Assembly (NCBI RefSeq): GCF_036507355.1
Contig: NZ_AP027877.1
Source: Escherichia coli
GTDB taxonomy: Bacteria > Pseudomonadota > Gammaproteobacteria > Enterobacterales > Enterobacteriaceae
Direction: 5' to 3' (one strand)
DNA: 64,000 nt
Both the position numbers and the translations under genes were made by a program. The notes below the pieces were generated by a model that worked only from the letters and a program-made list of their open reading frames with translations, had not been told where the DNA came from and did not search any database. Shown piece by piece: positions 3,157 to 52,134 of the stretch (position 1 is the first letter of the stretch; each line of letters opens with the position of its first letter).

Positions 3157-4626
3157 TTAATGGCTTTCCGGCGTCGCAATCATGCGTTTCAGCCACGGCA
3201 CCATCAACAGCATCACTACTGCAACGCCCAGTGTGACCAGACCAATCTTACCAAACACGTTGGTATAGACAGGCAACGTCTCAAGCGGATCGGTAATGTT
3301 GTCTGGTACTGCGGTAAATGTTGCCACATAGCCGCCCAGCAAGAACGCGGCAGCCTGCGTCAGGAACCACATCCCGAGAATAAAGCCCATCAAATGCTGC
3401 GGCACCAGGGCAGCAATCATCGCCAGGCCAAGGGCGCTAATAAACAGTTCACCTAAGCTCTGGAATAAGTACACCAGCACGATAAACCATGGCGATGTCA
3501 GCCCTTGTGCATCCGCAAACCACATTCCCGCAGCTGCCGCCGTCAAAAAGCCCAGTGAGCACATAAACATGCCGAGAGTAAATTTCATCGGCATGGAGAG
3601 GTCTTTGCCTTTATTCCCCAGATGGGTGTAGATACCTGCCAGTACCGGGCTGGCGAGCACCACCCAGAACGGGTTAAGCGCCTGGAAGCTCACCGGGTTG
3701 ATGGAAAAACCGAGAATTTCATGATGCACGTTGTTGATGGCAAAGAAGTTCAGCGACGTTGGCATCTGGGCGTAGAGAATGTAAAACACCACCGCTTCGA
3801 GCATCAGGACAAAGGCGACAAACATTTTATTGCGCCCGGTTTTATCCAGCTTGAATGCCTGACGAAAGAAGATGATGGTGACGACGATGGAGAGAACAAT
3901 CAGCACCAGATTGGCGACTTCTACGTTGTGCATCAGCCAGGCGCAGACGAAGATCATCACCACGCTGCCAAGTAATACGTACAACAGTTTGCTGAAGCTC
4001 ATTGGCCGGAAGTCGGGCTCAGAACCAATGTCTTTCACCATTCCACGACAGGCGATGTAAACCAGTAATGCGATAATTAACCCCGCCCCGCACAGGTTGT
4101 AGGTGACTGAATAGCCGAATCTATCAGCGATCACAGGGGCCAGCGATAACGCTATCAACGAGCCGATGTTGATCGACATATAGAACAGGGTGAATGCGCC
4201 ATCAAGGCGCGGATCTTTCGGCGGATAGCACTTCGAAAGCAAGCTGGCTGGGTTAGCTTTAAACAGGCCGTTACCGACAGCGATAGTCCCCAGGGCGATG
4301 AAAATCAGGTCAGGCTTAAGTAGCGACATGCCGGTCATGAAGTAGCCAATCGCCAGCACAAGTGCTCCGAGAACAATGGTGCGTTTGGTCCCCAGCAGGT
4401 GGTCGCCGACATAGCCGCCAATGGAAATGAGGCCATAGACCAGCGCAGCAAAAGCACCAAAAGTGACAAAAGCCTGCTCTTGCGAGAATCCAAGCTGTTT
4501 AACGAAGAAAACCGCCAGTACGCCCTGCACGCCGTAGTAGCCGAATCGCTCCCATAACTCGACAAAAAAGATCATGAAAAATGGGCGAGGTTGCTGCAGC
4601 ATCCCCATGGGTGTTGTTGTATTCAT
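3157..4626 (-). CDS. dtpB: dipeptide/tripeptide:H+ permease (POT family)
   Basis: 489-aa polytopic membrane ORF with POT-family signature; position between rsmJ and uspA. Confidence 0.9.
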
Positions 4627-43499: not shown

Positions 43500-44550
43500 G
43501 CGCGATGCAATCAATCATATTCGGCAGTTTGGCGGGCGTCTTGATCGCTTCCGTAAATCGGTCGGCGGCTCAGGCGACGGCGGTCGTAACGCGCCGAAAC
43601 GCGCGAAATCCTCGCCAAAACCGGTAAATCGCAAAACCAACGTTTTCAACGAACAGGTGCGCTATGCCTTCCACGGCGCATTGCAGGATCTGAAAAGCAA
43701 ACCGTTCGCCACGTTTTTAACGGTGATGGTTATCGCCATCTCTCTGACGCTGCCCAGCGTCTGTTATATGGTGTACAAAAACGTTAACCAGGCGGCGACG
43801 CAGTATTATCCGTCACCGCAAATCACTGTTTATCTGCAAAAAACGCTGGACGATGACGCTGCTGCGGGCGTGGTGGCACAGTTGCAGGCCGAGCAAGGCG
43901 TAGAGAAAGTGAATTATCTTTCTCGTGAAGACGCACTGGGCGAGTTCCGTAACTGGTCTGGTTTTGGTGGTGCGCTGGATATGCTGGAAGAAAACCCGCT
44001 TCCGGCAGTGGCGGTGGTGATCCCGAAACTCGATTTCCAGGGTACGGAATCACTCAATACGCTGCGTGATCGTATCACGCAGATTAACGGCATTGACGAA
44101 GTACGGATGGATGACAGCTGGTTTGCCCGTCTGGCGGCGTTGACCGGGCTGGTCGGGCGCGTTTCGGCGATGATCGGCGTGTTGATGGTGGCGGCAGTGT
44201 TCCTCGTCATCGGTAACAGTGTACGCCTGAGTATCTTTGCTCGTCGTGACTCCATTAACGTGCAGAAACTGATTGGTGCAACGGATGGTTTCATCCTGCG
44301 CCCGTTCCTGTACGGTGGCGCATTGCTGGGGTTTTCTGGCGCATTGTTGTCACTAATTTTGTCAGAAATTCTGGTACTGCGATTGTCATCGGCGGTTGCG
44401 GAAGTGGCACAGGTTTTCGGAACGAAGTTTGATATCAATGGCTTATCGTTCGATGAATGCCTGCTATTGCTGCTGGTATGCTCGATGATTGGCTGGGTGG
44501 CAGCGTGGCTTGCCACGGTACAACATTTACGCCACTTTACGCCTGAATAA
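43492..44550 (+). CDS. ftsX: cell-division ABC-type membrane protein
   Basis: ORF 43465..44550; likely start [12 protein letters not shown] overlapping the ftsE stop. Confidence 0.92.
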
Positions 44551-44565
44551 TAAAAGCGTGTTATA

Positions 44566-44602
44566 CTCTTTCCCTGCAATGGGTTCCGTAGCAGGGAAAG
44601 AG
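44566..44602 (+). terminator. stem-loop after ftsX
   Basis: 12-bp perfect inverted repeat CTCTTTCCCTGC ... GCAGGGAAAGAG; no strong T-run, so possibly an attenuating rather than full terminator. Confidence 0.45.
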
Positions 44603-44674
44603 ACCCCGTTGTCTCTTCCCGGTATTTCATCTCTATGTCACATTTTGTGCGTAATTTATTCACAAGCTTGCATT

Positions 44675-44701
44675 GAACTTGTGGATAAAATCACGGTCTG
44701 A
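44675..44701 (+). promoter_or_regulatory. sigmaE-dependent promoter of rpoH (P3-like)
   Basis: GAACTT, 16 nt, TCTGA (GAACTTGTGGATAAAATCACGGTCTGA), matching the sigmaE -35/-10 consensus, about 95 nt upstream of rpoH. Confidence 0.75.
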
Positions 44702-44794
44702 TAAAACAGTGAATGATAACCTCGTTGCTCTTAAGCTCTGGCACAGTTGTTGCTACCACTGAAGCGCCAGAAGATATCGATTGAGAGGATTTGA

Positions 44795-45649
44795 ATGACT
44801 GACAAAATGCAAAGTTTAGCTTTAGCCCCAGTTGGCAACCTGGATTCCTACATCCGGGCAGCTAACGCGTGGCCGATGTTGTCGGCTGACGAGGAGCGGG
44901 CGCTGGCTGAAAAGCTGCATTACCATGGCGATCTGGAAGCAGCTAAAACGCTGATCCTGTCTCACCTGCGGTTTGTTGTTCATATTGCTCGTAATTATGC
45001 GGGCTATGGCCTGCCACAGGCGGATTTGATTCAGGAAGGTAACATCGGCCTGATGAAAGCAGTGCGCCGTTTCAACCCGGAAGTGGGTGTGCGCCTGGTC
45101 TCCTTCGCCGTTCACTGGATCAAAGCAGAGATCCACGAATACGTTCTGCGTAACTGGCGTATCGTCAAAGTTGCGACCACCAAAGCGCAGCGCAAACTGT
45201 TCTTCAACCTGCGTAAAACCAAGCAGCGTTTGGGCTGGTTTAACCAGGATGAAGTCGAAATGGTGGCCCGTGAACTGGGCGTAACCAGCAAAGACGTACG
45301 TGAGATGGAATCACGTATGGCGGCACAGGACATGACCTTTGACCTGTCTTCCGACGACGATTCCGACAGCCAACCGATGGCACCGGTGCTCTATCTGCAG
45401 GATAAATCATCTAACTTTGCCGACGGCATTGAAGATGATAACTGGGAAGAGCAGGCAGCAAACCGTCTGACCGATGCGATGCAGGGTCTGGACGAACGCA
45501 GCCAGGACATCATCCGTGCGCGCTGGCTGGACGAAGACAACAAGTCCACGTTGCAGGAACTGGCTGACCGTTACGGTGTTTCCGCTGAGCGTGTGCGCCA
45601 GCTGGAAAAGAATGCGATGAAAAAACTGCGCGCTGCTATAGAAGCGTAA
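44795..45649 (+). CDS. rpoH: RNA polymerase sigma-32 factor
   Basis: 284-aa [38 protein letters not shown]... Confidence 0.97.
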
Positions 45650-45670
45650 TTTCCGCTATTAAGCAGAGAA

Positions 45671-45702
45671 CCCTGGATGCGAGTCCGGGGTTTTTGTTTT
45701 TT
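45671..45702 (+). terminator. rpoH intrinsic terminator
   Basis: CCCTGGA-TGCGAG-TCCGGGG hairpin (one G-U pair) followed by TTTTTGTTTTTT. Confidence 0.7.
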
Positions 45703-45919
45703 GGGCCTCTACAATAATCAATTTCCCCTCCGGCAAAACGCCAATCCCCACGCAGATTGTTAATAAACTGTCAAAATAGCTATTCCAATATCATAAAAAT
45801 CGGGTATGTTTTAGCAGAGTATGCTGCTAAAGCACGGGTAGTCATGCATAAAATGAAATAAAGTGCTGAACAACAACATCACAACACACGTAATAACCAG
45901 AAGAATGGGGATTCTCAGG

Positions 45920-47023
45920 ATGAACATAAAGGGTAAAGCGTTACTGGCAGGATGTATCGCGCTGGCATTCAGCAATATGGCTCTGGCAGAAGATATTAAA
46001 GTCGCGGTCGTGGGCGCAATGTCCGGTCCGGTTGCGCAGTACGGTGACCAGGAGTTTACCGGCGCAGAGCAGGCGGTTGCGGATATCAACGCTAAAGGCG
46101 GCATTAAAGGCAACAAACTGCAAATCGTAAAATATGACGATGCCTGTGACCCGAAACAGGCGGTTGCGGTGGCGAACAAAGTCATTAACGACGGCATTAA
46201 ATATGTGATTGGTCACCTCTGTTCTTCATCAACGCAGCCTGCGTCTGACATCTACGAAGACGAAGGCATTTTAATGATCACCCCAGCGGCAACCGCGCCG
46301 GAGCTGACCGCCCGTGGCTATCAGCTGATCCTGCGCACCACCGGCCTGGACTCCGACCAGGGGCCGACGGCGGCGAAATATATTCTTGAGAAAGTGAAAC
46401 CGCAGCGTATTGCTATCGTTCACGACAAACAGCAATACGGCGAAGGTCTGGCGCGAGCGGTGCAGGACGGCCTGAAGAAAGGCAATGCTAACGTGGTGTT
46501 CTTTGATGGTATCACCGCCGGGGAAAAAGATTTCTCAACGCTGGTGGCGCGTCTGAAAAAAGAGAATATCGACTTCGTTTACTACGGCGGTTATCACCCG
46601 GAAATGGGGCAAATCCTGCGTCAGGCACGCGCGGCAGGGCTGAAAACTCAGTTTATGGGGCCGGAAGGTGTGGCTAACGTTTCGCTGTCTAACATTGCGG
46701 GCGAATCAGCGGAAGGGCTGCTGGTGACCAAGCCGAAGAACTACGATCAGGTTCCGGCGAACAAACCAATTGTTGACGCCATCAAAGCGAAAAAACAGGA
46801 CCCAAGCGGCGCATTCGTCTGGACCACCTACGCCGCGCTGCAATCTTTGCAGGCGGGCCTGAATCAGTCTGACGATCCGGCTGAAATCGCCAAATACCTG
46901 AAAGCGAACTCGGTTGATACCGTGATGGGGCCGCTGACGTGGGATGAGAAAGGCGATCTGAAAGGCTTTGAGTTCGGCGTATTTGACTGGCACGCCAACG
47001 GCACGGCGACCGATGCGAAGTAA
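45920..47023 (+). CDS. livJ: Leu/Ile/Val-binding periplasmic protein
   Basis: ORF 45863..47023; likely start [23 protein letters not shown] (signal peptide); paralog of the livK product. Confidence 0.93.
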
Positions 47024-47043
47024 CGGATAGATAAATGAAAATG

Positions 47044-47076
47044 CCCGATGCGCTTAACGTCCATCGGGTTTTTTTA
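47044..47076 (+). terminator. livJ intrinsic terminator
   Basis: CCCGATG ... CATCGGG stem followed by TTTTTTTAT. Confidence 0.75.
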
Positions 47077-47172
47077 TGTTTGTCGAAATGGTTGTAGAAA
47101 GATTAAACAATCCAGGATATGCTTATTGTACGGTGATATGCCGTACATATTATACGGAGCAGGAGAGTTCAC

Positions 47173-47439
47173 ATGTCTGCTGTTAAAAAGCAGCGTATCG
47201 ATCTGCGTTTAACTGACGATGACAAAAGTATGATTGAGGAAGCGGCAGCGATATCTAATCAGTCCGTCAGCCAATTTATGTTGAACAGCGCTTCGCAGCG
47301 GGCTGCGGAAGTGATTGAACAACATCGGCGGGTGATCCTCAATGAGGAATCCTGGACGCGGGTGATGGATGCGCTGAGTAATCCACCGTCACCAGGTGAA
47401 AAGCTAAAACGTGCGGCAAAACGTCTTCAGGGAATGTAA
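47173..47439 (+). CDS. DUF1778 antitoxin (AtaR/TacA-like)
   Basis: 88-aa ORF, RHH-like N-terminus (RIDLRLTDDDKSMIEEAAAISNQSVSQFML); 6-nt gap to the downstream GNAT gene. Confidence 0.75.
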   Translation: MSAVKKQRIDLRLTDDDKSMIEEAAAISNQSVSQFMLNSASQRAAEVIEQHRRVILNEESWTRVMDALSNPPSPGEKLKRAAKRLQGM

Positions 47440-47445
47440 TAATTT

Positions 47446-47973
47446 ATGGATGATCTGACGATAGAGATTCTGACCGATGATGCAGATTATGATCTACAGC
47501 GATTCGACTGCGGCGAGGAAGCGTTAAATCTCTTTCTGACGACACATCTGGTTCGTCAACATCGCAACAAAATTCTGCGAGCGTATATCCTTTGTCGCAA
47601 CACTCCAGAACGTCAGGTGCTGGGATATTACACATTATCCGGCAGTTGTTTTGAACGAGCCGCATTGCCCTCGAAATCGAAACAGAAAAAAATTCCCTAC
47701 AAAAATATTCCCAGCGTCACTCTTGGGCGTCTGGCAATTGATCATTCAATACAGGGGCAGGGATGGGGAGCAACACTGGTTGCTCATGCCATGAAAGTCG
47801 TCTGGTCAGCCTCTTTAGCGGTAGGTATTCACGGTCTTTTTGTCGAGGCGCTGAATGAAAAAGCCCATACGTTTTATCAGTCGCTGGGCTTTATCCCGTT
47901 AGTCGGGGAAAACGAAAATGCGTTATTTTTCCCAACGAAATCCATTGAACTGCTTTTTACACAGAGCGATTAA
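47446..47973 (+). CDS. GNAT-family acetyltransferase toxin (AtaT/TacT-like, predicted aminoacyl-tRNA acetyltransferase)
   Basis: 175-aa ORF with acetyl-CoA-binding motif (IQGQGWGATLVAHAM) and GNAT core; classical antitoxin-toxin gene arrangement. Confidence 0.75.
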   Translation: MDDLTIEILTDDADYDLQRFDCGEEALNLFLTTHLVRQHRNKILRAYILCRNTPERQVLGYYTLSGSCFERAALPSKSKQKKIPYKNIPSVTLGRLAIDHSIQGQGWGATLVAHAMKVVWSASLAVGIHGLFVEALNEKAHTFYQSLGFIPLVGENENALFFPTKSIELLFTQSD

Positions 47974-48353
47974 CGCTTCTCCCAGCCGCCCTGCTGTGCC
48001 GTAAATCCCAGTGCCTGCATAAACGCCGTCATCACACCGCGATCTTCCACGCCTGCATCCGCCATCCACCAGCATGAAACGCCAGGATTGTTACGCAAAA
48101 CCTCTTCCAGCAGATATTGCCCCACACCGCGACGTCGGGTGACTTCCCGCACGCGCAGGGAATCCAGTGCTCCCTCGGTGCCGCTTAAGGTTACCCGTAC
48201 GGCAGCGAGCAGGCGCTCGTTAAAACGCGCGGCGTAGATACGGTGGTTATCGTCAACCTGTAACGAGGAAGGGGAATACTCCGGCCAGATCTTTTGCAGG
48301 TCAATCCGGTCCTGGTCGCTAAATTTTTCTAATCGAATGATGGTCAGCTTCAT
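47970..48353 (-). CDS. panZ: PanD maturation/regulatory factor (GNAT-like)
   Basis: 127-aa ORF MKLTIIRLEKFSDQDRIDLQKIWPEY...; between livJ and livK. Confidence 0.85.
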   Translation of the reverse strand: MKLTIIRLEKFSDQDRIDLQKIWPEYSPSSLQVDDNHRIYAARFNERLLAAVRVTLSGTEGALDSLRVREVTRRRGVGQYLLEEVLRNNPGVSCWWMADAGVEDRGVMTAFMQALGFTAQQGGWEKR

Positions 48354-48776
48354 GGGTAACCCGTGTAAATCACAAAAGTGGAACCAGTGTAGCGAAATAA
48401 TTTAATCGGAGGCTTTCTCTTTTTTATTTCTTTTGGCAGGTGATTAATTTTTTAACAGCAATAATTACAAAGTTAAAACATTAGAGAATGAAAAATGTCC
48501 AGCATAATCCCCTGAATGATAGTGAATTATTCCGCCCTTTATGCCGTTATTTTATGCTGACAAAGGCACTTTTTTCTGTTTATCTATCAATAAATTCAGA
48601 ATATTATCTGTTCTTAATCGACTGAAAAATAGGGGTTTTAATCGCTATCATCACAAAATACTGCGCTAACCCCTTAATCAGACAGGCAAAAACAGTGCAG
48701 TATAAAAAAAGAACAGTCTGATTTGTTAACACATAAAAACAAAGCAACACAACATCACGAATGGGGATTTTTGACT

Positions 48777-49886
48777 ATGAAACGGAATGCGAAAACTATC
48801 ATCGCAGGGATGATTGCACTGGCAATTTCACACACCGCTATGGCTGACGATATTAAAGTCGCCGTTGTCGGCGCGATGTCCGGCCCGATTGCCCAGTGGG
48901 GCGATATGGAATTTAACGGCGCGCGTCAGGCGATTAAAGACATTAATGCCAAAGGGGGAATTAAGGGCGACAAGCTGGTTGGCGTGGAATATGACGACGC
49001 CTGCGACCCGAAACAAGCCGTTGCGGTCGCCAACAAAATCGTTAATGACGGCATTAAATACGTTATTGGTCATCTGTGTTCTTCTTCTACCCAACCTGCA
49101 TCAGATATCTATGAAGACGAAGGTATCCTGATGATCTCGCCGGGGGCGACCAACCCGGAGCTGACCCAACGCGGTTATCAACACATTATGCGTACTGCCG
49201 GGCTGGACTCTTCCCAGGGGCCTACAGCGGCAAAATACATTCTTGAGACGGTGAAGCCCCAGCGCATCGCCATCATTCACGACAAACAACAGTATGGCGA
49301 AGGGCTGGCACGTTCGGTGCAGGACGGGCTGAAAGCGGCTAACGCCAATGTTGTTTTCTTCGACGGTATTACCGCCGGGGAGAAAGATTTCTCTGCGCTG
49401 ATCGCCCGCCTGAAAAAAGAAAACATCGACTTCGTTTACTACGGCGGTTACTACCCGGAAATGGGGCAGATGCTGCGCCAGGCTCGTTCCGTCGGCCTGA
49501 AAACCCAGTTTATGGGGCCGGAAGGTGTGGGTAATGCGTCGCTGTCGAACATTGCTGGCGAAGCCGCTGAAGGCATGTTGGTCACTATGCCAAAACGCTA
49601 TGACCAGGATCCGGCAAACCAGGGCATCGTTGATGCGCTGAAAGCAGACAAGAAAGATCCGTCCGGGCCTTATGTCTGGATCACCTACGCGGCGGTGCAA
49701 TCTCTGGCAACTGCCCTTGAGCGTACCGGCAGCGATGAGCCGCTGGCGCTGGTGAAAGATTTAAAAGCTAACGGTGCAAACACCGTGATTGGGCCGCTGA
49801 ACTGGGATGAAAAAGGCGATCTTAAGGGATTTGATTTTGGTGTCTTCCAGTGGCACGCCGACGGTTCATCCACGGCAGCCAAGTGA
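48777..49886 (+). CDS. livK: Leu-specific periplasmic binding protein
   Basis: ORF 48723..49886; likely start [23 protein letters not shown]. Confidence 0.93.
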
Positions 49887-49933
49887 AAATCCCACCGCCC
49901 GTGAAATGCGGGCGGGTTTAGAAAGGTTACCTT

Positions 49934-50860
49934 ATGTCTGAGCAGTTTTTATATTTCTTGCAGCAGATGTTTAACGGCGTCACGCTGGGCAGTACCTACG
50001 CGCTGATAGCCATCGGCTACACCATGGTTTACGGCATTATCGGCATGATCAACTTCGCCCACGGCGAGGTTTACATGATCGGCAGCTACGTCTCATTTAT
50101 GATCATCGCCGCACTGATGATGATGGGCATTGATACCGGCTGGCTGCTGGTGGCGGCGGGATTCGTCGGCGCAATCGTCATTGCCAGCGCCTACGGCTGG
50201 AGTATCGAACGGATGGCCTATCGCCCGGTGCGTAACTCCAAGCGCCTGATTGCACTCATCTCGGCAATCGGTATGTCCATCTTCCTGCAAAACTACGTCA
50301 GCCTGACCGAAGGTTCGCGCGACGTGGCGCTGCCGAGCCTGTTTAACGGTCAGTGGGTGGTGGGCCATAGCGAAAACTTCTCTGCCTCTATTACTACCAT
50401 GCAGGCGGTGATCTGGATTGTTACTTTCCTCGCCATGCTGGCGCTGACGATTTTCATTCGCTATTCCCGCATGGGGCGCGCGTGTCGTGCCTGTGCGGAA
50501 GATCTGAAAATGGCGAGCCTGCTTGGCATTAACACTGACCGGGTGATTGCGCTGACCTTTGTGATTGGCGCGGCGATGGCAGCGGTGGCGGGCGTACTGC
50601 TCGGTCAGTTCTACGGCGTCATTAACCCCTATATCGGCTTTATGGCCGGGATGAAAGCCTTTACCGCTGCGGTGCTCGGTGGGATTGGCAGTATTCCGGG
50701 GGCGATGATTGGCGGGCTGATTCTGGGGATTGCGGAGGCGCTCTCTTCTGCCTATCTGAGTACAGAATATAAAGATGTGGTCTCATTTGCCCTGCTGATT
50801 CTGGTGCTGCTGGTGATGCCGACCGGTATTCTGGGTCGCCCGGAGGTAGAGAAAGTATGA
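49934..50860 (+). CDS. livH: branched-chain amino acid ABC permease
   Basis: 308-aa membrane ORF. Confidence 0.93.
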
Positions 50861-52134
50861 AACCGATGCATATTGCAATGGCGTTGCTCTCTGCCGCGAT
50901 GTTCTTTGTCCTGGCAGGCGTTTTTATGGGCGTACAACTGGAGCTGGATGGCACCAAACTGGTGGTCGACACGGCTTCAGACATCCGTTGGCAGTGGGTG
51001 TTTATCGGCACGGCGGTGGTCTTTTTCTTCCAGATTTTGCGACCTGCTTTCCAGAAAGGGCTGAAAAGCGTTTCCGGACCGAAGTTTATTCTGCCCGCGA
51101 TTGATGGCTCCACGGTGAAGCAAAAGCTGTTTCTCGTGGCGCTGCTGGTGCTTGCGGTGGCGTGGCCGTTTATGGTGTCGCGTGGGACGGTGGATATCGC
51201 CACCCTGACCATGATCTACATTATTCTCGGCCTCGGGCTGAACGTGGTTGTTGGTCTTTCTGGTCTGCTGGTGCTGGGGTACGGCGGTTTTTACGCCATC
51301 GGCGCTTACACCTTTGCGCTGCTCAATCACTATTACGGCCTGGGCTTCTGGACCTGTCTGCCGATTGCCGGGTTAATGGCGGCGGCGGCGGGCTTCCTGC
51401 TCGGTTTTCCGGTGCTGCGCCTGCGCGGCGACTATCTGGCGATCGTTACCCTCGGTTTCGGCGAAATTGTGCGCATATTGCTGCTCAATAACACCGAAAT
51501 TACCGGCGGCCCGAATGGTATCAGTCAGATCCCGAAACCGACTTTCTTCGGCCTCGAGTTCAGCCGTACCGCCCGTGAAGGCGGCTGGGACACGTTCAGT
51601 AATTTCTTTGGCCTGAAATACGATCCCTCCGATCGCGTTATCTTCCTCTACCTGGTGGCGTTGCTGCTGGTGGTATTAAGCCTGTTTGTCATTAACCGCC
51701 TGCTGCGGATGCCGCTGGGTCGCGCCTGGGAAGCGTTGCGTGAAGACGAAATCGCCTGCCGTTCGCTGGGCTTAAGCCCGCGTCGTATCAAGCTGACCGC
51801 CTTTACCATCAGCGCCGCGTTTGCGGGTTTTGCCGGAACGCTGTTTGCGGCGCGTCAGGGCTTTGTCAGCCCGGAATCCTTCACCTTTGCTGAATCAGCC
51901 TTTGTACTGGCGATAGTGGTGCTCGGCGGTATGGGCTCGCAATTTGCGGTGATTCTGGCGGCTGTTCTGCTGGTGGTATCGCGCGAGTTGATGCGTGATT
52001 TCAACGAATACAGCATGTTAATGCTCGGTGGTTTGATGGTGCTGATGATGATCTGGCGTCCGCAGGGCTTGCTGCCCATGACGCGCCCGCAACTGAAGCT
52101 GAAAAACGGCGCAGCGAAAGGAGAGCAGGCATGA
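50857..52134 (+). CDS. livM: branched-chain amino acid ABC permease
   Basis: 425-aa membrane ORF overlapping the livH stop. Confidence 0.93.

Follow-up and report, generated by a model that had tools for sequence, protein, structure and literature searches.

The closest known relative of the gene pair described here is AtaRT of Escherichia coli O157:H7, a named and biochemically defined system with solved crystal structures (PDB 6AJM, 6AJN, 6GTO-6GTS, 7CHD). Its type locus is Z4833-Z4832 in strain EDL933 (He et al., PMC7957018), and the pair is encoded by ECs_4308/ECs_4307 in strain Sakai. Dimers of the toxin AtaT acetylate the alpha-amino group of aminoacyl-tRNAs with acetyl-CoA (PMC7595197). 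Met-tRNAfMet was the first substrate to be reported, followed by Gly-, Trp-, Tyr- and Phe-tRNAs, and it is debated if the specificity is restricted to fMet or covers this broader set (PMC7595197). Which tRNA is acetylated depends on G-C pairs of the acceptor stem and on the aminoacyl moiety (PMC7595197). For toxicity, AtaT needs G108 (acetyl-CoA binding) and Y144 (catalysis) (Yashiro et al., PMC7595197). Toxicity likewise depends on H34/R37/R40, R71, S76, S78, K77/K79/K81/K82, Y85, R95 and F30, which contact the tRNA acceptor stem, and on L27 and L136 of the aminoacyl pocket (PMC7595197). According to published work, the heterohexamers of both AtaRT and KacAT bind a palindromic sequence within their own promoters (PMC6698736, PMC8138530). 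In kacAT, this palindrome spans the transcription start (PMC6698736), and for AtaRT, an excess of toxin lowers the affinity of the complex for its operator (PMC8138530).

More distant systems share the same general design. TacAT, TacAT2 and TacAT3 from Salmonella as well as ItaRT and AtaRT2 from E. coli combine a DUF1778/RHH antitoxin with a GNAT toxin that acetylates aminoacyl-tRNAs (PMC9431474, PMC7367177, PMC7470980). They differ from the pair under study by distant sequences (PDB matches with E-values from 1e-20 to 4e-04), by other reported tRNA specificities and by their location at other loci.

The window analysed here is a stretch of 64,000 nucleotides of E. coli DNA (contig NZ_AP027877.1, assembly GCF_036507355.1). 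It contains a small RHH/DUF1778 ORF followed, 6 nt further on and on the same strand, by a 175-aa GNAT ORF, exactly as an earlier reading made from the letters and their ORFs alone (the sequence-only reading) had described. The first gene, ataR (47173..47439, plus strand), codes for the 88-aa predicted antitoxin and autorepressor and matches the Pfam domain TacA1/DUF1778 (PF08681, E = 7.9e-26). The second, ataT (47446..47973, plus strand), codes for the predicted toxin, an aminoacyl-tRNA N-acetyltransferase with Pfam matches to Acetyltransf_7 (E = 4.8e-07) and Acetyltransf_1 (E = 6.2e-06). A single promoter/operator region lies upstream of the two genes. Among the NCBIfam HMMs, no model for AtaT or AtaR was matched, and the GNAT and RHH families were hit only below threshold. 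NCBI evidently names such proteins by other rules, so that this is no argument against membership.

The proteins themselves leave little room for another assignment. AtaR matches the crystallised antitoxin from O157:H7 (PDB 6AJM_C/6GTO/6GTS) in each of its 88 residues and shows zero differences from ECs_4308 of strain Sakai. AtaT aligns with PDB 6GTS_A over its full length (residues 1-175 on 1-175, E = 3.2e-114) and is identical to the O157 toxin in 171 of 175 positions (98%), the changes being C65S, R100H, L102I and K145Q. Because both proteins are identical, or nearly so, to crystallised proteins, a chance pair of ORFs is excluded. The exact 175-aa toxin sequence is already present in NCBI, under the name AtaT, on 56 contigs. 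Among the matches listed for 1624 E. coli genomes, RefSeq names the corresponding genes ataR and ataT, and panM lies under the module match. In strain Sakai, ECs_4308/ECs_4307 occupies the same site, between livJ (annotated there as livK, ECs_4309) and panM. The two loci agree in gene order, in the 6-nt gap, in the operator half-sites, in the chromosomal site and in a 4-nt overlap with panZ; they differ by the four toxin substitutions and by three SNPs located within and next to the operator spacer, and these differences are natural polymorphisms throughout. We thus consider it about 93% probable that the pair is the chromosomal ataR-ataT operon at its canonical livJ-panZ site, an old polymorphic resident whose present allele, judged by its identity to the characterised system, would be active. 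The initial assignment to an AtaRT/TacAT-type system was right but understated, since the pair is AtaRT.

KacA-KacT from Klebsiella pneumoniae (PDB 5ZGN, 5XUN) is a related GNAT/RHH pair (E = 3e-74 for the toxin and 2e-38 for the antitoxin). Its operator half-sites, TGTACGG/CCGTACAT, are identical to those of the window, and the heterohexamer and conditional regulation are alike according to the literature (PMC6698736). However, KacT is only about 68% identical to the AtaT of the window, and kacAT is flanked by a cusS-like kinase gene and a roxA-like gene rather than by livJ and panZ. An assignment of the window pair as KacAT ortholog was therefore rejected, and KacAT is regarded as a paralog-level relative.

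The immediate setting of the operon is compact. Directly after the livJ stop codon (at 47023) begins a segment that is specific to the module, and its left border is marked by the livJ intrinsic terminator (47035..47077, plus strand), a hairpin followed by a U7 run. RNA folding gives -19.2 kcal/mol with z = -5.0, and none of 200 shuffled sequences folded as well. This terminator is kept in every aligned ataRT-bearing locus from Escherichia. On the other side lies the neighbour panZ/panM (47970..48353, minus strand), which is outside the module and matches the NCBIfam PanM equivalog (E = 1.2e-56). The placement between the livJ terminator and panZ and the convergent orientation of the toxin gene and panZ, both noted beforehand, are thus confirmed. 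A search with Rfam found no RNA family across the whole window.

Between the terminator and ataR, at 47127..47147, lies a perfect 7-nt inverted repeat (TGTACGG-N7-CCGTACA). Upstream regions were aligned from nine loci, namely from the window, O157, two other E. coli, E. albertii, E. ruysiae, another Escherichia, Salmonella enterica subsp. salamae and kacAT of K. pneumoniae. The half-sites are invariant in all nine, while the 7-nt spacer and the flanks vary. This palindrome is very probably the operator for the AtaR4-AtaT2 repressor complex. A Shine-Dalgarno sequence (AGGAG, 47161..47165, plus strand) is directly readable 7 nt before the ATG of ataR. The promoter is less obvious. A scan of 46900-48500 for consensus promoters and terminators found nothing; the livJ terminator was missed because its loop is too long for the scan, and folding confirmed it. 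There is, however, a weak candidate for a sigma-70 promoter of ataRT at 47095..47123 (plus strand), with a -35 element TAGAAA (47095-47100), a 17-nt spacer and a -10 element TATGCT (47118-47123). It scores 8 of 12 against the consensus, which is below the threshold of the scan, and it aligns with a better match (TTGAAA-N17-TACACT) at the locus from S. enterica subsp. salamae. If used, this promoter would place the transcription start inside the palindrome, as reported for kacAT (PMC6698736).

The likely mode of action can be carried over from the literature. A dimer of AtaT would block translation by acetylating charged tRNAs at their amino group. The C-terminal domain of AtaR would bind AtaT, preventing formation of the active dimer and building an AtaT-AtaR4-AtaT heterohexamer, the RHH domains of which would bind the palindromic operator that overlaps the promoter and repress the operon. 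An excess of toxin would relieve this repression. For the present allele, we base this scheme on the identity of the proteins, the intact catalytic and tRNA-binding residues, the operon architecture, the conserved operator half-sites and the conserved locus; binding of its complex to the operator is expected on the same grounds.

All residues attributed a role in O157 AtaT are present in the toxin of the window (L27, F30, H34, R37, R40, R71, S76, K77, S78, K79, K81, K82, Y85, R95, G108, L136 and Y144), and the acetyl-CoA motif Q/R-x-x-G-x-G/A is found as Q103-G106-G108. Two of the four substitutions are close to motifs of the active site, with R100H adjoining the acetyl-CoA motif and K145Q adjoining the catalytic Y144. 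PMC7595197 makes no mention of R100, K145 or C65. In an alignment of 15 sequences, all four substitutions fall into columns that are naturally variable in the family. S65 and Q145 are the majority states, I102 is shared with E. ruysiae, and H100 is found in further alleles from E. coli. The ataT allele of the window thus probably encodes an active toxin, with toxicity, neutralisation and tRNA acetylation predicted from its identity to characterised proteins.

A shorter form of the toxin is found at the same site in E. ruysiae, E. marmotae and related Escherichia. This 170-aa allele (proteins P0053, P0047 and P0051; positions 4001-4513 of the extracted Escherichia loci L014 and L015) has lost residues 81-85 (KKIPY) in frame, and NCBI does not apply the name AtaT to it. 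The mutation Y85A abolishes the toxicity of AtaT, and K81 and K82 are among four lysines whose joint mutation lowered it (PMC7595197). Given these mutant data, the 170-aa alleles may be naturally attenuated toxins.

Such alleles in the genus, together with the four differences from the characterised toxin, of which two lie close to motifs of the active site, could be taken to mean that the module of the window is decayed or domesticated, with either an attenuated toxin or an AtaT that acts mainly as a protein lysine acetyltransferase. The latter role is modelled on EspB, as AtaT is reported to acetylate EspB at K206 and thereby to enhance EHEC virulence (PMC7957018). We consider this very improbable. 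Both ORFs are full-length, every experimentally important residue is intact, and the substituted positions are variable in the family anyway. A fully conserved AtaR and an intact operator suggest a continuing need for neutralisation and repression. Furthermore, nothing in the window points to a type III secretion system or to the substrate EspB.

The sequence-only reading had also taken K-12 to lack a gene at this site and had proposed a strain-specific insertion into the liv locus. The first statement holds: in K-12 MG1655, livJ and panZ are separated by only 187 bp, with a REP-like element and without any gene. On one side, homology between the window and K-12 extends to the livJ stop codon; on the other, it breaks off inside the final panZ codon. 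This final codon differs in strains that carry ataRT, so that PanZ ends with ...EKC (Cys) in K-12 but with ...EKR (Arg) in the window.

The second statement is not supported. Of 5426 complete E. coli genomes, 1624 (30%) carry the module, where it is always single-copy and always chromosomal; in 1612 of the 1624, at least 80% of the query is covered. The K-12-type spacer is found in 3748 of the 5426. Judged by synteny at livJ-panZ, the proposal survives its own refuting condition (the two genes at this site in all E. coli including K-12) in the letter only: the module is not present in all E. coli and is missing from K-12, but it is far from being strain-specific. The arrangement of livJ, an antitoxin of 88-89 aa, the toxin, and panZ with the 4-nt overlap is also found in E. 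albertii, E. ruysiae and further Escherichia (there with the 170-aa allele). S. enterica subsp. salamae has the same arrangement, with a toxin that is 76-77% identical.

A recent horizontal insertion of a mobile toxin-antitoxin cassette, specific for this strain, would account for the absence of the module from K-12 and for the large share of genomes with the K-12-type spacer. It would also fit the base composition, as the module has a GC content of 46.6%, compared to 54.5% in livJ, panZ and livK. This difference indicates that the module was foreign at some point, though long ago. In E. ruysiae, the module is 95% identical to that of the window at the nucleotide level and the flanks are 94-96% identical, so that module and flanks have diverged to the same extent, which fits vertical descent. 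In S. enterica subsp. salamae, identities of 71-78% for the module and 76-89% for the flanks fit an old, fast-evolving resident. E. albertii deviates from this pattern. In the comparison of two of its loci (L004 and L005) with positions 45920-49886 of the window, identity is 97% for the module with its upstream spacer but only 92-93% for livJ, panZ and livK. This suggests a later recombinational exchange between species, which complicates the interpretation as an old resident and shows, in favour of an insertion, that the module can be exchanged. No transposase, integrase or other mobility gene and no direct or flanking repeat was found at the borders, which instead fall on the stop codon of livJ and the final panZ codon, and the site, the spacing and the 4-nt overlap with panZ are constant across the E. 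coli genomes that carry the module and in the other species named above. A recent insertion is thus largely refuted, and we consider it extremely unlikely.

Taken together, it is simplest to assume that the module was acquired at this site in ancient times, was then repeatedly lost or replaced (as in K-12), and was now and then exchanged by homologous recombination via the conserved flanks. The REP-containing spacer of the K-12 type is most simply explained by such a loss or replacement of the module. A deletion scar in K-12 was considered as a candidate trace of this event, but past its panZ stop codon, K-12 has only about 4 nt (CGAT) in common with the 3' terminus of ataT, too little to serve as evidence.

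The alternative occupant of the site is a repetitive extragenic palindrome. Within the K-12-type spacer (positions 2369-2555 of the extracted locus L001) lies a REP/BIME-like repeat with at least 11, and typically 40 or more, matches in each E. coli genome. In E. coli UID2309220033 (NZ_CM142689.1; positions 2207-2695 of the extracted locus L010), the site is in a third state. A 94-aa antitoxin of the TacA family, only 66% identical to AtaR, is followed there by a toxin pseudogene that is truncated at its 5' end and whose match to ataT is confined to the final ~200 nt (93%). This points to decay or allele replacement at the livJ-panZ site. As to the lineage of the window itself, none of the 5426 complete RefSeq E. 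coli genomes is identical to it, the best match for 44000-52000 reaching only 98.3% over 8 kb. For contigs that code for exactly this AtaT, the identity to the window is 98.6-99.05%. Identity is uneven from gene to gene, so that the lineage looks mosaic across 44000-52000.

Some type II toxin-antitoxin systems act in anti-phage abortive infection. A module of this kind, with a toxin that is released upon infection, would be compatible with the observed polymorphism, as presence and absence in E. coli are in line with the dynamics of defence genes. Neither AtaR nor AtaT matches a PADLOC model at E <= 0.01, however, and the site is a housekeeping intergenic region rather than a defence island and is stable across genera. 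In the literature examined, no report of phage defence by AtaRT was found. A role in phage defence is thus very unlikely.

The genes ataT and panZ, on opposite strands, end in the same 4-nt palindrome (TTAA, 47970-47973), in which their stop codons overlap. The convergent overlap is TTAA in all Escherichia loci and CTAG in S. enterica subsp. salamae. As no intergenic space is left for terminators, the transcripts of ataT and panZ must run antisense into each other. AtaT consumes acetyl-CoA, and PanZ/PanM is a regulator of pantothenate synthesis that senses CoA/acetyl-CoA. On this basis, and because the overlap is conserved, one may speculate that the two genes are functionally coupled rather than merely co-resident, and that antisense transcription could tie expression of the toxin to CoA homeostasis. 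We regard such a coupling as very unlikely. Among the papers found by a single literature search, none links AtaT to panZ, panM or livJ in a bacterial context.

As a discovery, the pair matters little, because AtaRT already has structures, a defined biochemical activity and a gene name in RefSeq. Only mildly new is that the site, the operator half-sites and the stop/stop overlap with panZ are conserved across genera. The last two of these, together with the natural alleles devoid of residues that are essential for toxicity, are of minor interest to specialists for toxin-antitoxin systems. The useful outcome is a corrected evolutionary inference: the module would be a long-standing, polymorphic occupant of the livJ-panZ site that E. 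coli has in common with its sister species and with a subspecies of Salmonella.
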